Positions 1 through 10,956 of a stretch of 10,956 bases of DNA are shown here, piece by piece. The DNA is from a virus (taxonomy: Duplodnaviria > Heunggongvirae > Uroviricota > Caudoviricetes). The first letter of the stretch is position 1. The number at the start of each line of letters is the position of its first letter. The notes under the pieces are model-generated. The model was not told where the DNA came from and made no database searches. It worked only from the letters and a program-made list of their open reading frames with translations. The position numbers and the translations under genes were made by a program. The stretch lies in IMG/VR virus record IMGVR_UViG_2541047722_000006; one strand, given 5' to 3'.

Positions 1-165
1 CTCATGCTGGCGAACCCAGACACGCAGAGTCTCCGGCGTACAGCCAATCTTTGGAGCAATGGAACAAATTGTCGCCCATTGTGAGTCATATTCGCTCTGA
101 CTTTCCAGAACCATACGGACTGCCCGTTGACGGACTTCGGGGGAAAAACGAGTATTTTTAGTCAT
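1..165 (-). CDS. IS629 transposase OrfA, N-terminal part (continues beyond window start)
   Basis: ATG at 165-163 (minus) preceded by AGAGGT, giving [55 protein letters not shown], identical to OrfA of the complete copy. Confidence 0.85.
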
Positions 166-219
166 CCTGTTTACCTCTTTCTCAGGAAGTTTAGTCTCCA
201 GGATTCCCGGGGCGGTTCA
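1..219 (-). mobile_element. IS629 (IS3 family), partial copy running off the window start; left terminal repeat at 219
   Basis: The reverse complement of 1-219 is identical to the first 219 bp of the complete copy at 3495-3713 (TGAACCGCCCCGGGAATCCTGGAGACTAAACTTCC...). The terminus abuts unrelated sequence at 219/220. Confidence 0.9.
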
Positions 220-2347: not shown

Positions 2348-3494
2348 TTATTGAGCTTCTTTTTGTGATGCCTGTGCGACTCTGGTGAGCGATTGTGTGA
2401 CCGTACTGATCGCTCTGTCATATGCTGTGCTACCTTTTGGCGTATTTGCCAGACGTAACAAGGCATTTCGTATAACAGGGCTTTCGTATGCCTTCGCAGC
2501 TCCTCCTACGACACCAGCAGCAGGAACAACAAACGCAGCCGTTTTTAGCATCCCCGCTAATACTGCTGCGTTTATGATGCCACCACCAACTAACAATCCA
2601 TAAAGCTGCTGACCATTTAAGTTTTGAACGTTCGCTTTTGCCGCGTGTCTTGTATCGTTGAGGTATTTAATAACGCCGTCCAGTTCCTTTCCATGTACGC
2701 CTTTAAAGAAAGTTGCTGATTGCTTCCTGTTCCGGTGTAACGCATTAATAAACTTTTCAACACTAATATTTCCAGACGGATCAGTCGCCTTATCTACAGC
2801 ATTCTGAACTATGGCTGCTCGTGCGTTTTGCCTACCATTGTCATCCAGAAGCCTGTAAAGCTGAGAACGTTCTGATGGGTTTTGGCTAAAAACGAGTTTT
2901 GTTACATCCTCAGGTGTAGCCTTGCCGCTGGCTATTGCCTTTTGAACGCGCGTTCTTCCCATCATGTCATTGAATCTAGCCCATGAGCGATCAACCCTAG
3001 ACATATTGGCAGCTTCTTCTGAGCCTAGTTTTTGGGATACTGCTTTTTTCATATCCGCTGTATATGCCTTGTAGACAATATCGCTGGCTTTCTGGAGCGT
3101 GTCTTTATCAACAGTCTCGTTTGAATTCATGAACCGCTTTCGAAGGTCAGTTCTGTTTTCTCTCGCCAGACGCAGGTCATTGGGTCCGCTGGTGATATCG
3201 TCTTTAAATTGCTGCAAGACTTTTACCGCGGCTCTATCCTGAGATTTGCCCGGGCGGCTTAACACGGCAATCTGATTGTCGATAGCTTTTACCGTGTTTG
3301 AGAGATCGACAGGGGTATCCCCCATAGCGTCAATTATGCGGTTATATCGCTTTCCTGCTGCCTCAATGAATTTTTGTTGCCCTTTAGTCGCAGATTCATA
3401 AAGCTGTTTATCAGAAATGCCACCCAGACCATCGCTAAATGTTCTGACTAAATTTTCTCGTGCTTGTTGTTGATTCAGCCGATTCTTACCGGTT
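2348..3494 (-). pseudogene. P22 gp16-like DNA-ejection (transfer) protein, C-terminal fragment separated from its 5' part by IS629
   Basis: The minus frame is open from the IS629 junction (3494) to TAA at 2350-2348 (checked codon by codon for 3326-3494). It is in frame with the N-terminal fragment once the IS and one copy of the duplication are removed. Position after gp20 matches P22 gene order. Confidence 0.8.
3492..3494. repeat. Target-site duplication (GTT), left copy, of the IS629 insertion in gp16
   Basis: GTT immediately precedes the IS629 terminus TGAACCGCC at 3495; the same triplet follows the other terminus at 4805-4807. Confidence 0.6.
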
Positions 3495-3548
3495 TGAACC
3501 GCCCCGGGAATCCTGGAGACTAAACTTCCTGAGAAAGAGGTAAACAGG

Positions 3549-3875
3549 ATGACTAAAAATACTCGTTTTTCCCCCGAAGTCCGTCAACGGGCAGTCCGTA
3601 TGGTTCTGGAAAGTCAGAGCGAATATGACTCACAATGGGCGACAATTTGTTCCATTGCTCCAAAGATTGGCTGTACGCCGGAGACTCTGCGTGTCTGGGT
3701 TCGCCAGCATGAGCGGGATACCGGGGGCGGTGATGGAGGGCTCACCACCGCTGAACGTCAGCGTCTGAAAGAGCTGGAACGTGAAAATCGTGAACTGCGC
3801 CGCAGTAACGATATCCTTCGCCAGGCTTCCGCTTATTTTGCGAAGGCGGAGTTCGACCGCCTCTGGAAAAAATGA
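3549..3875 (+). CDS. IS629 transposase OrfA (108 aa, HTH DNA-binding part)
   Basis: ATG at 3549 preceded by AGAGGT. The protein has the leucine-zipper-like C-terminus ([29 protein letters not shown]) typical of IS3-family OrfA. Confidence 0.9.
3867..3873 (+). promoter_or_regulatory. Putative programmed -1 ribosomal frameshift site (A6 run) for the OrfAB fusion transposase
   Basis: AAAAAA at 3867-3872 lies at the end of orfA, just before its TGA (3873-3875); orfB begins in the -1 frame at 3872. IS3-family elements are known to make a fused OrfAB transposase by -1 slippage. Confidence 0.5.
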
Positions 3876-4762
3876 TGCCACTGCTGGATAAGCTGCGTGA
3901 GCAGTACGGGGTCGGACCGCTATGCAGCGAACTGCATATTGCCCCGTCAACGTATTACCACTGTCAGCAACAGCGACATCATCCGGATAAACGCAGTGCC
4001 CGTGCGCAGCGCGATGACTGGCTGAAGAAAGAGATACAGCGCGTATACGATGAAAATCACAAGGTATACGGTGTGCGTAAAGTCTGGCGTCAGTTGTTAC
4101 GGGAAGGTATCAGAGTGGCCAGATGCACTGTGGCACGTCTCATGGCGGTTATGGGACTTGCCGGTGTTCTCCGGGGTAAAAAGGTCCGTACGACCATCAG
4201 CCGGAAAGCCGTTGCCGCAGGCGACCGCGTAAACCGTCAGTTCGTGGCAGAACGACCTGACCAGCTGTGGGTGGCTGATTTTACTTACGTCAGCACATGG
4301 CGGGGCTTCGTCTATGTGGCGTTCATCATTGATGTGTTTGCCGGATACATCGTGGGGTGGCGGGTCTCATCGTCCATGGAAACGACATTCGTGCTGGATG
4401 CACTGGAGCAGGCGTTATGGGCCCGTCGACCGTCCGGCACGGTCCATCACAGTGATAAAGGTTCTCAGTATGTATCGCTGGCCTACACACAGCGGCTTAA
4501 GGAAGCCGGATTACTGGCATCAACAGGAAGTACAGGCGACTCGTATGACAACGCGATGGCGGAGAGCATCAATGGTCTTTACAAAGCGGAGGTAATACAC
4601 CGTAAGAGCTGGAAAAACCGTGCAGAAGTGGAACTGGCCACACTCACGTGGGTGGACTGGTATAACAATCGACGATTGCTGGAAAGGCTGGGCCATACTC
4701 CTCCGGCAGAAGCAGAAAAAGCTTATTATGCTTCCATCGGAAACGATGATCTGGCAGCCTGA
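3872..4762 (+). CDS. IS629 transposase OrfB (DDE/RNase H-fold catalytic part, 296 aa); expressed mainly as an OrfAB fusion spanning 3549-4762
   Basis: ORF in the -1 frame relative to orfA, overlapping it by 4 nt. Contains motifs of an IS3-family integrase core (WVADFTYV...HHSDKGSQY...[15 protein letters not shown]). Confidence 0.9.
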
Positions 4763-4804
4763 GTTCACAGATAAAACACTCTCCAGGAAACCCGGGGCGG
4801 TTCA

Positions 4805-4807
4805 GTT
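4805..4807. repeat. Target-site duplication (GTT), right copy, of the IS629 insertion in gp16
   Basis: GTT directly after the IS629 right terminus at 4804, matching 3492-3494. Confidence 0.6.
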
Positions 4808-5676
4808 CCAAAAAAAGGAACTCTTTCGCCTAATGTCTGAGCCTGACTCTGCATAAAGGTTTTATCTTTCAGCGTGTCACTGGTCATTAACGGCAGGTTT
4901 CTTTCCGACGCAAAATCGACAGCAGCCTTTGCTTCCGGTGACATCTCACCGCGAACAGCCCTGGAAACCGCACTAACTGTATTTTCCAGCCCCTTGCCAA
5001 CACCACCAATGCCAGCAGAAATTACCGTTTGTGCAGGATCAATATCTTCTCCGCCAGCAAGGCTGGTGCCACCCTGTAGTGCTAAATCTGTAGCAGCTGA
5101 TTTCCCTATGGCACCAAGCACCGTTCCAGCCCTGCCCGCTGGTGTGAACGCTAACGCATTAGCAAGAAACGAAGTCAGGTCTTGCGGTGATAAACCTGGC
5201 TTGTTCAGGGCATAATCACCGGATGGCAGGGAAACGATAGTGTTACCCTTCTCATCCTGCCTTAATTTCGCCCCCATACTCTGAAGAATCTTTTCCTGAG
5301 ACGCGTCGGAGCCGAAAAGTTGAGACCATCCAGCCTTCAGGGCATCCATGCTTAGTGAGTTCAACTCAGGGGCAGCCCCAACATTTTGCAGTCTCTCCAT
5401 TTCTGGTGTCATTCGGCTTTCACCGGTAACGGCATCGCGCATTGCAGCACCTAAAACAGCCCCTTGCTCAGCAGAGCGATCTAGTCCTTCCTTCTGCTGA
5501 GTGGCAAGCTGTGCATATCCTGATGCAAGTGAGTTGTCTGCTGGCGATTGCTGAACACCTTGTTGTGTTGGCGCTGACTGACCAGCAAAATACTCATCAA
5601 TGGCGGACCCAATATCTTCCGTGCTCGTACCATCAGGAAAGGTAAATGTCTTACCATTTGCAGTTACTTTCATCAT
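4805..5676 (-). pseudogene. P22 gp16-like DNA-ejection (transfer) protein, N-terminal fragment truncated by IS629
   Basis: ATG at 5676 overlaps the gp20 stop (ATGA). The N-terminus [33 protein letters not shown] matches my memory of P22 gp16. The present ORF (4765-5676) reads 12 codons into IS629 (EPPRVSWRVFYL) before stopping; native sequence ends at 4805. Confidence 0.8.
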
Positions 5677-7829: not shown

Positions 7830-8285
7830 CTATCTCCCGTGATTCAGGAAGTCGATTAGTTCTTCGCGTGTGGCGCTGTAAAACGTCACGTCATCCACGC
7901 CTTTGAAGTATTTCTTGATGGTTCCTACACGCTTAAGGCCAATCATTGCGCAGTACATCTGCCCGTGGCGGAATTTGCGTGCAGCAAATGATGTGACGCA
8001 CTGAACGGTGGTGTTGGTCAGAATGTATCGCCAGAACGCCAGCCCTATTTCCTTGCTGAAGCCGCGAATCTCTGGCAGGTACATGGCGTGGCAATCGAAT
8101 GTAAGCGGCTGAATCTCCTGATAGTAAACAATGCCGCCAAACTGACCGTGCACGTTCACCTCAAAGTAACGGCAATCAGGTTTGTAGTCGTATCCATCAC
8201 CGTTGTTGCTCCCGGCGATGATGTCAGGGTGATTTCCTACTGCTTCGATCAGGTCGATGTTTCGCGTTGGTTTGAATGTAATCAT
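7830..8285 (-). CDS. P22 gp14-like virion/head assembly protein, 151 aa
   Basis: ATG at 8285 overlaps the gp26 stop (TGATG). Assigned mainly by synteny between the tail needle and gp7; I do not recall the P22 gp14 sequence. Confidence 0.7.
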   Translation of the reverse strand: MITFKPTRNIDLIEAVGNHPDIIAGSNNGDGYDYKPDCRYFEVNVHGQFGGIVYYQEIQPLTFDCHAMYLPEIRGFSKEIGLAFWRYILTNTTVQCVTSFAARKFRHGQMYCAMIGLKRVGTIKKYFKGVDDVTFYSATREELIDFLNHGR

Positions 8286-8986
8286 CAGTCAATCAGCCCA
8301 TGTAATCTAAGTGCTGTTTCAAGCGCCAGAATACGCTGCCGCGCCTGCTCCAAACCTGTAGCGATAGCTGCGACTTCGGATTGTGTGTACGTAGTGCCGA
8401 CCGTGTATGACTGGTTAGCGTTGAATGAGCCAAGAAGTGGTGTGCCTGTGGCCGCTGTCCATCCGGTCTGCCTTGCTCCAACGACCTGAATTCCATCAAC
8501 TGAATATGATGTTTTTACATCCAGCGGTGACGCAAGAGACTGCGATTCTGTTACGGTTTTCGATACGTAATCACTCTTAATGTCAGATATATCGCTTTCT
8601 ACGCCATCCAGTCTTTGGTCAACAGTGACCAGATGCGCCTGAATATCGATAACCTCATCCAGCAAGTAATCAACATCGCTACGCAGTACAACTATCTTCC
8701 CTTCGGCGGTTGTTAACCTGACCTCAAGGAGATTTATCGCTTTTGTGTTTGCGGTGATTCTTGCATCGTGGTCAGCCAGTTCGACATCCTGTTCATCGTT
8801 TTTCACCTGAGCATCGTAAGCGCCCTGACCAGCCTGATTTGCTTTCCCGGCAATTGCGCCGACATCAGCCCCCTGATTAATGACATACAGCAGGTAAGAC
8901 TGGCTGAATATATTGCGTGGAAGGATTGATGTATCGAGCCGCGTCGCCTGCACAATAACAGGGGTGTTGAGATTCGAATCAGCCAT
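8285..8986 (-). CDS. Tail needle protein (P22 gp26-like), 233 aa
   Basis: Start taken as the ATG at 8986, which overlaps the gp10 stop (TAATG). From there the protein begins [73 protein letters not shown], close to the P22 gp26 N-terminus as I recall it, and ends ...LRLHGLID. The longer ORF-track version starts at a GTG (9088) inside gp10. Confidence 0.85.
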
Positions 8987-10404
8987 TACTCGATCCTTAT
9001 CTGGCAGCCAGACAGAGTGACAGGTGACTTCGTGATAACGCGCAATTTGAAGCCGACATTTTTCCTGATGCGCCCGACTCGCTTCCACAAAACGCGTTTG
9101 TCGTAAACAAACGGTTCATTCTGCTCAATCATCTGCTCACGACCGTAATTGATGCCGTCAGTGGTTGCAGAGAGAAAAAGGCGGTCGGCGTACTGCGCAA
9201 CGCCAGTTGAAGATTCAACTTCAAGGTCGAAAACTCTGGCGTTATCCGCTTTGAACAGAGGAGTAAACAGCAGATGCTCCTGTTGCTTGTCGTACTGGCT
9301 GCTGATGTCGAATTGCAATTTCCCGGTCACGGACTCCAGCTTATCGCCGCACGTTATCTGATTGCCTTCGTAAATGAAGTCGATAGCGCGGTACACATCG
9401 TCATACAGACCTGTTTTCAGTACACACCATTGCGGAGCATTGGCGCTTGAAGATGCGTCGTATACGAGGACATGGCGCGGAAGATGGATAATCAGCAGCT
9501 CATGCGCATCAAATCGCAGAGACTCCATCACACCATCAGCCAGTTCATCAGCAGTGTAGGAGCGAAGAATTTTCTCAATGCTCGCGCTGGCGATTGGTGA
9601 CACCTGCCCGGAACCGATGATGTATACAGACGGCGCACCTGTTGCCGGATTGCTGATGAACGCATAGGAATCAGCGAATGGCGTTTTGCAATAGGTTCCG
9701 GCGATGCCTTTTTGCACCATCAGTGATGGCTGTGCGACATACAAAGCAGCACCAACGGTGGTTGCGCCAGTCAGGGAGAAATATTCAATAGTCGATGAAC
9801 CAAAGCAGACGATGAAGTCTCGCCATGTCCCGATACCGATGATGCCGTCCGGCTGCGATTCTGCGCGATATTGTGCACTGTATCGGTCAGGGTGCGATTC
9901 GTCTTCAAGGTCAGTGATAAACCATGAATCAGTTCCGTCTTTTGACCACGCATAACGCCCACGTAAGCGAGTAATGTCGCGAACTGAACCTAACTCATAC
10001 TGCGTGAATCCACTGTCTGTAGGCCAGTTTGAGACGGTTTTAACCGTGCCATCATAACGATACTCGACCAGTTGACCATTAACGCCTACAGCCTGTGATG
10101 TTCGACCATGCGCCATTGATACGCGACCACTTCCGGCGACGTCACCGACTTCGCTTTCTCCTTTGTACAGCTTGCCGCCACACACGCGATAAACAGCACT
10201 CTGCGCCATGTTGTACTCGACGCCGCGCGATATACCATTCACATCAGAACGTTTGGCAATGCCCGGGAATGAGCGAAGATATCCGCTGCTGTTCAGGATT
10301 TCTTTGGGCGTAGCCAACATATTCACTGGCAGATAGTCGATATAGTCGGCGTTTCGAAAGTCTTTGCCGACACCTTTCATAAGCGGAAGTTGCTGAATCG
10401 GCAT
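8986..10404 (-). CDS. P22 gp10-like head-completion / packaged-DNA stabilisation protein, 472 aa
   Basis: ATG at 10404 with GAGGTG 5 nt upstream. The N-terminus [49 protein letters not shown] matches my memory of P22 gp10, and the length is the same (472 aa). Confidence 0.9.
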
Positions 10405-10413
10405 TTATTCACC

Positions 10414-10861
10414 TCACGTACTCGGATCATCTTTCTCGATGTAAAACCGATTCCACGTAAACGCGCTTTTGTTACCACTACCGCGAGGCATGTCATTTCG
10501 CCGCTCAAGTGGTGGTATTTTGGTTAAAGCGATACAGATTGTCTGATATGCACTGTCAGCAGCGGTAAGGAGAGCGTCTGACGGCTGAATGACGTTATCC
10601 ATGCACACTTGCACAGCGAGTTTCAAAGCGACGCCATCATTTGCCCATGCAGGGATGCCTGAATCATCGTCAGGTAACGGCATGATGCCGTTTTCTGTAT
10701 CAGCAAACTGATACCCAAGCTCGATACCTTTCGCCTGCCATGCTGCCATCATGTCTTCGAGGTCATTAATGGCATCTTCAATTGCCTGAGGGTCAGCATC
10801 TGTCAACGTGGCATTGGAATACAGCCCGGCTTTTCGTAAAGCCTTTAGAACGAGATCACCC
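10414..10861 (-). pseudogene. P22 gp4-like head-completion / packaged-DNA stabilisation protein, 5' end interrupted by IS629
   Basis: The minus frame is open from the IS629 junction (10861) to TGA at 10416-10414. The translation from the junction, GDLVLKALRKAGLYSNATLTDADPQAIEDAINDLEDMMAAWQ, resembles the P22 gp4 N-terminal region (MQIKTKGDLVRAALRKLG... as I recall it), so only a few codons and the start codon are missing. The TTG at 10806 used by the ORF track is not a credible start. Confidence 0.7.
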
Positions 10862-10956
10862 TGAACCGCCCCGGGAATCCTGGAGACTAAACTTCCTGAG
10901 AAAGAGGTAAACAGGATGACTAAAAATACTCGTTTTTCCCCCGAAGTCCGTCAACG
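10862..10956 (+). mobile_element. IS629 (IS3 family), partial copy running off the window end; left terminal repeat at 10862
   Basis: 10862-10956 is identical to the first 95 bp of the complete copy (TGAACCGCCCCGGGAATCCTGGAGACTAAACTTCCTGAGAAAGAGGTAAACAGGATGACTAAAAATACTCG...). Confidence 0.9.
10916..10956 (+). CDS. IS629 transposase OrfA, first 13 codons (continues beyond window end)
   Basis: ATG at 10916 with the same AGAGGT ribosome-binding site as the complete copy; translation [13 protein letters not shown]. Confidence 0.8.
   Translation, partial: MTKNTRFSPEVRQ

Follow-up and report, generated by a model that had tools for sequence, protein, structure and literature searches.

The window, i.e., the whole stretch of 10,956 nucleotides analyzed here, carries part of the late operon of a P22-like prophage. 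Its reverse complement corresponds to positions 4718-15673 of a locus (L023) fetched from scaffold KE699353.1 of assembly GCA_000456885.1, with 0 mismatches. Across this locus, the genes follow the order coat, 62-aa ORF, gp4, gp10, needle, DUF2824 (gp14), gp7, gp20 and gp16, which is the late-operon order of P22. The remnant of gp4, a gene for a head-to-tail adaptor, occupies 10414..10861 on the minus strand and lies between the coat gene and gp10, the position of gp4 in P22-like late operons. The next gene downstream is gp10 (tail hub, packaged-DNA stabilisation protein; 8986..10404, minus strand), which encodes an intact protein of 472 aa that matches PF11134 with 994 bits and is found exactly in thousands of assemblies. 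The ORF between gp10 and DUF2824 (8285-9088, minus strand) takes the position of the tail needle (gp26 in P22). A Pfam search of this ORF returned no match, relatives annotate a 233-aa hypothetical protein, and the needle that other P22-like prophages have in this place is 282 aa long and bears a Phage_tail_NK knob; it seems that the needle gene is a variable module.

The gp4 reading frame contains 148 codons, corresponding to codons 6-153 of the intact gene (10417-10860), and a TGA stop at 10414-10416. Codon 5 (AAG) contributes only its third base, at 10861; its other two bases and codons 1-4 are absent from the window side of the gene. The translation, GDLVLKALRKAGLYSNATLTD...FYIEKDDPST, begins with GDLVLKALRK and ends with EKDDPST directly before the stop. 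An earlier note, made from the letters of the window, had regarded this frame as a homolog of P22 gp4, and profile and structure searches bear out this assignment. The Pfam profile P22_Tail-4 (PF11650) matched the remnant with 132 bits (E=2.7e-38; cut-off 21), aligning residues 1-145 of the fragment to profile positions 8-151 of 159. The intact allele matched PHROG 637 ("head-tail adaptor Ad3") with E=5.7e-70, and the solved structures of Sf6 gp7 (7sfs, E=9.4e-32) and P22 gp4 (8tvu and 4v4k, E about 3e-23) were matched with near full-length coverage. All 148 residues of the remnant are identical to residues 6-153 of WP_001140510.1 from E. coli S88, an intact protein of 153 aa that starts with MAKTKGDLV and is annotated in S88 as "packaged DNA stabilization gp4 family protein". 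At the nucleotide level, 9800-10861/2 is matched with 100% identity in many complete E. coli genomes, S88, APEC O1 and ATCC 11775 among them; alignments with the intact allele extend to 10862 because the next native base and the first base of the insertion sequence are both T. The idea that the 148-codon fragment is already full length, which the earlier note had named as a possible objection, was rejected, the intact allele having 153 aa versus 148 here. The remnant has no start codon of its own, with the ATG and residues 1-5 detached, and is a predicted pseudogene of the PF11650 family, not a functional member.

The native sequence ends at 10861/10862, after nt 17 of gp4, so placed just inside the 5′ end of the gene as the earlier note had described. 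The adjoining 10862..10956 (plus strand) is the left end of an insertion sequence, whose terminal inverted repeat starts with TGAACCGCCCCGGGAATCCTGGAGA and whose orfA ATG is located at 10916; its transposase is encoded on the plus strand, antiparallel to gp4. These 95 nt are 100% identical to the first 95 nt (3495-3589) of a complete element at 3495..4804 and to the reverse complement of 125-219. The complete element (1310 bp, plus strand) lies inside gp16, where a GTT duplication flanks it. Its orfA (HTH; HTH_Tnp_1) and orfB (DDE/rve) are linked through a programmed frameshift, and its terminal inverted repeats, TGAACCGCCCCGGGAATCC and TGAACCGCCCCGGGTTTCC, are imperfect. Compared with the element in LC567824.1 (Stx2a phage Stx2_499), which is annotated as "IS3 family IS629, target site duplication AGG", i.e., with a 3-bp duplication, it has 7/1310 mismatches (99.47% identity). 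Judging from its sequence, the interrupting element is IS629 of the IS3 family, as had been proposed from the letters of the window. The gp4 copy itself is sequenced at its two 95-nt ends, both of which are identical to those of the complete window copy (left 95/95, right 95/95), and its interior is a gap of 1400 Ns.

IS629 copies are found elsewhere in this prophage as well, which carries at least four (gp4, gp16, clpP and tailspike). The left end of a third copy, reversed, occupies 1..219 on the minus strand and cuts a clpP-like gene; the same IS629 insertion in the clpP-like gene is present in the complete genomes FY26 and BEN5202. Further gaps, flanked by IS629, surround a truncated endosialidase tailspike gene (L023 15674-16943 and 17523 onward), and the assembly gaps of this prophage region all correspond to IS copies. 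The complete copy splits gp16 into two parts (2348-3494 and 4805-5673). The ORF of the 325-aa C-terminal gp16 fragment occurs in 88 blocks of the assembly collection, and in several relatives this fragment adjoins IS629-bounded deletions or inversions. The N-terminal fragment of gp16 (302 aa) is peculiar to this prophage, and an exact-protein look-up with it gave one record, GCA_000456885.1; the 303-aa version that starts at the first of two adjacent ATGs gave no exact-protein record. The gp16 insertion appears to be older and shared, in contrast to the gp4 insertion. In O157:H7, 62% of IS629 copies reside in prophages (PMC3271280).

Runs of N bound the window on both sides. Its end coincides exactly with the start of the 1400-N gap (L023 3318-4717) and its beginning is another scaffold gap inside the clpP-cutting IS629 copy; the window is the contig between two IS-caused gaps, and therefore the sequence past it was invisible to the earlier reader. 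That reader had suggested looking on the far side for the other end of the element, a matching duplication and the first gp4 codons followed by the coat gene, and scaffold KE699353.1 contains exactly these features: the IS629 right end, GGG on both sides, and ATGGCGAAAACGAAGGG, with the 62-aa ORF and the coat gene beyond. The right-end junction joins ACGAAGGG to TGAACCGCC, and the left-end junction joins GGCGGTTCA to GGGTGATCTC. In the direction of the gene, GCGGAAGAAG is followed by ATG GCG AAA ACG AAG GG and then, at the border, by TGAACCGCCCCGGGTTTCCTGGAGAGTG; at the other junction, CCCGGGGCGGTTCA borders GGG TGA TCT CGT. The empty gp4 site in uninterrupted loci reads AAGGGTGATC. The intact site ACGAAGGGTGATC contains a single GGG, whereas the interrupted locus contains one GGG on each side of the element. 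The target GGG corresponds to gp4 nt 15-17; one copy lies in the window at 10859..10861 (CCC on the plus strand, GGG in the orientation of the gene), as recognized by comparing the junction sequences with the intact site, and the second copy lies outside it at L023 3220-3222. A 3-bp duplication agrees with the target duplications of 3-4 bp known for IS629 (PMC3271280).

The earlier note had left undecided whether the rest of the late operon continues beyond the element or had been deleted. The 62-aa ORF, coat, scaffold and portal genes are present beyond it and not deleted. The 3222 nt that precede the gp4 stub are collinear with S88 (19 mismatches), and the genes there have their usual lengths (62-aa ORF; coat, 417 aa; scaffold, 297 aa). 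For the portal gene, the record calls a product of 732 aa, and only the last 739 nt of the gene are inside the fetched locus; the locus ends within this gene, and the terminase genes lie further out. The 62-aa ORF (L023 3037-3225) overlaps the gp4 start, and its TGA stop directly follows the target GGG. The element landed exactly between the GGG and this stop, and the upstream protein is unaltered because the terminal TGA of the element restores the stop at the same position; the product is identical to the S88 protein at 62/62 residues.

These junctions bear on the idea that 10862 is the breakpoint of an IS629-mediated deletion or rearrangement, by which coat, scaffold, portal and terminase genes were lost or moved. 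Such events do occur in relatives, e.g., in Z1323HEC0422, and IS629-bounded deletions or inversions are found at gp16 in other compared loci (L024, L026-L028, L030 and L032). A deletion would, however, leave no matching duplication, and the other end of the element shows the duplicated GGG, the missing gp4 bases, and collinear 62-aa ORF, coat, scaffold and portal genes. Provided that the scaffold join is right, the duplication together with the collinear flanks refutes an IS-mediated deletion, which is to be considered extremely unlikely. The event is read as a simple transposition and not as a deletion endpoint because the right end, the GGG duplication, the missing codons and the collinear flanks are all in place.

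The linkage of the two junction contigs is the depositor's scaffolding, and the junction might in principle be a chimeric contig end produced by a collapsed IS repeat, with gp4 actually intact. The N gaps within the IS629 copies at both window ends would fit such an artefact, as would the size of the gap, estimated at 1400 Ns versus the 1120 nt that a single IS629 would need there, so that extra material is conceivable. Against this, the target is split over two independent contig ends, whose complementary halves share exactly 3 bp, and in both of them the fusion is exact to the terminal base of an inverted repeat, left in one and right in the other, which a mis-assembly would not produce; moreover, at this locus the site is nowhere intact in the assembly. 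The chance that gp4 is intact behind an assembly error is close to negligible.

Regarding the expression of the remnant, the gp4 frame runs unbroken upstream through 10862-10950, i.e., through 30 codons of IS-derived sequence. ATG, GTG and TTG codons were sought in this frame between the upstream stop and the TTG at 10806, and none was found; the statement of the earlier note that the frame enters the element without a start codon, and that native sequence upstream of 10806 offers no credible start with a ribosome-binding site, holds. The public record nevertheless annotates a 154-aa "gp4" at L023 4796-5260 (window 10414-10878, minus strand), in which MPGAVQ precedes GDLV... and the start is an ATT in the left inverted repeat of IS629. 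If translation started at this ATT (154 aa) or at the TTG at 10806 (130 aa), gp4 function could be kept, and the replacement of only five N-terminal residues in the 154-aa protein would favor this, as would the open frame in the element and the annotation itself. On the other hand, neither the ATT nor the TTG is preceded by a properly spaced Shine-Dalgarno sequence, and a promoter scan detected no promoter-like site facing the gp4 remnant. Initiation at ATT is very rare in E. coli, and a start at the TTG would cost the 130-aa version 23 conserved residues at its N terminus. Retained gp4 function is thus very unlikely; gp4 is very probably not made from the interrupted gene because the ATT and TTG candidates have no properly spaced Shine-Dalgarno sequence. 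The 154-aa product, which is annotated only in GCA_000456885.1, almost certainly arose in annotation as an artefact of the gene's interruption.

As to the distribution of the junction, an exact scan with a 35-mer spanning it gave 0 matches in each of the genome_contigs, viral_contigs and metagenome_contigs collections, and when 9800-10956 was compared by megablast with 5,426 complete E. coli genomes, no record showed the junction. Two megablast matches with 100% coverage (H1 and H2) proved not to be the junction, having an IS upstream of an intact gp4, and an apparent 100% match of FY26 to the window in full is spurious, produced by the joining of IS pieces, gp4 being intact there. Exact-protein look-ups of gp10 and of the 130-aa TTG ORF led only to loci with intact gp4 or to unrelated contig ends. 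In the phage collection, all gp4 alleles are intact, the IS629 copies are unrelated, and no interrupted gp4 was found. The empty gp4 site is present in 18/34 compared loci, and the filled site is found only in KE699353.1. The distribution suggests that the gp4 insertion is recent and strain-private, as it looks from these comparisons.

Relatives with identical late genes have intS beside tRNA-Arg, an acyltransferase and an endosialidase tailspike, and many of them contain different IS629 insertions or IS-bounded deletions or inversions in the same prophage. In Z1323HEC0422 (NZ_CP148339.1; locus L002, 7077-8600), gp4 is intact and an IS3-family element lies 86 bp upstream of it; immediately next to this element come an integrase remnant and sbcB. 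Here the entire upstream half of the prophage has truly been lost in association with an IS, which is what the earlier note had thought possible for the window. In a different P22-like prophage from an unrelated assembly (GCA_001265875.1, JHSG01000027.1; locus L014, 1-120), gp4 is joined to the right end of an IS629 isoform at another GGG (nt 49-51), which lies 34 nt downstream of the window site, and the element points the other way. The gp4 5′ end has in this case been hit by an IS independently of the insertion in the window, again at GGG. That IS629-type elements recurrently target GGG triplets at the start of gp4 (first ~50 nt) in P22-like prophages is a tentative and rather improbable proposal. 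If true, it could reflect a local target preference or, alternatively, selection to abolish virion completion while lysogenic-conversion genes (e.g., the capsule O-acetyltransferase) are kept.

Taken together, the locus is best explained by a simple transposition of IS629 into gp4 of a CUS-3-like prophage, abolishing gp4 and virion completion, to which a probability of about 0.94 is given. On this reading, IS629 (1310 bp) transposed into gp4 of a CUS-3-like, K1-endosialidase prophage located at tRNA-Arg in E. coli. It inserted after gp4 nt 17, with its transposase opposite to gp4, duplicated the GGG of nt 15-17 and left the last 148 codons detached from codons 1-5, including the ATG, and from the ribosome-binding site. 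The flanks are otherwise untouched, with the 62-aa ORF and the coat, scaffold and portal genes on the upstream side and gp10 through gp16 on the downstream side. The junctions, the duplication, the identities of gene and element and the collinearity of the flanks are directly visible in the sequence; the loss of gp4 expression and its effect on the virion are inferred. In P22-like phages, once the DNA has been packaged, gp4 attaches to the portal before any other factor; this adaptor prevents leakage of the genome, and the tail hub gp10 assembles only on it (PMC9728967). With gp4 not made, the particle would probably be unable to retain its DNA or to build its tail, and virions very probably could not be completed because the adaptor is needed on the portal before gp10. 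The gp4 insertion would be one more IS629 event in the decay of a prophage already broken in gp16, clpP and the tailspike gene.

The import of this event beyond annotation is limited: it is a single step, apparently private to the strain, in the decay that IS629 drives in a CUS-3-like K1 prophage. The prophage can probably produce no infectious particles, but its gp16 and tailspike genes had been broken in any case. The gp4/IS629 junction might be used to mark the strain or lineage, and the 154-aa "gp4" of the public record, with its ATT start inside the IS, should be flagged as a mis-annotation.

Compared with known systems, the interrupted gene belongs to the same family and stands in the same gene order as P22 gp4 and Sf6 gp7 (tail accessory factor, "packaged DNA stabilization protein gp4"), the intact allele having 153 aa versus 166 aa in P22 and 160 aa in Sf6. 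It differs from both in that the first 14 native bases, the start codon and the ribosome-binding site are missing from the gene owing to the IS. The gp4 region is 99.3% identical to that of CUS-3 from E. coli K1 RS218 (CP000711); the match spans the whole gp4 remnant (query 1-449), and the bases of the IS end are unmatched in that record. The CUS-3-like traits, namely the endosialidase tailspike, the acyltransferase and intS at tRNA-Arg, occur in relatives with the same late genes. Therefore, from these traits of the relatives and the identity of the gp4 region, the prophage is classified as a CUS-3-like, P22-like K1 prophage, which differs from CUS-3 in carrying at least four IS629 copies. 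The closest parallel for the insertion is IS629 in the prophages of O157:H7 (Sakai, EDL933 and related strains), which is the same element with regard to length (1310 bp), type of termini, sequence (99.5% identity) and 3-bp duplication. As in O157:H7, prophage DNA is preferred, phage genes are inactivated and diversity at the strain level is driven by the element. The present case differs in that the host is an E. coli of the K1/ExPEC-APEC type, the prophage is CUS-3-like and P22-like instead of a lambdoid Stx phage, and this gp4 site is occupied in no other genome searched. The interruption of gp4 is an ordinary instance of IS629-driven prophage decay, already known in kind.
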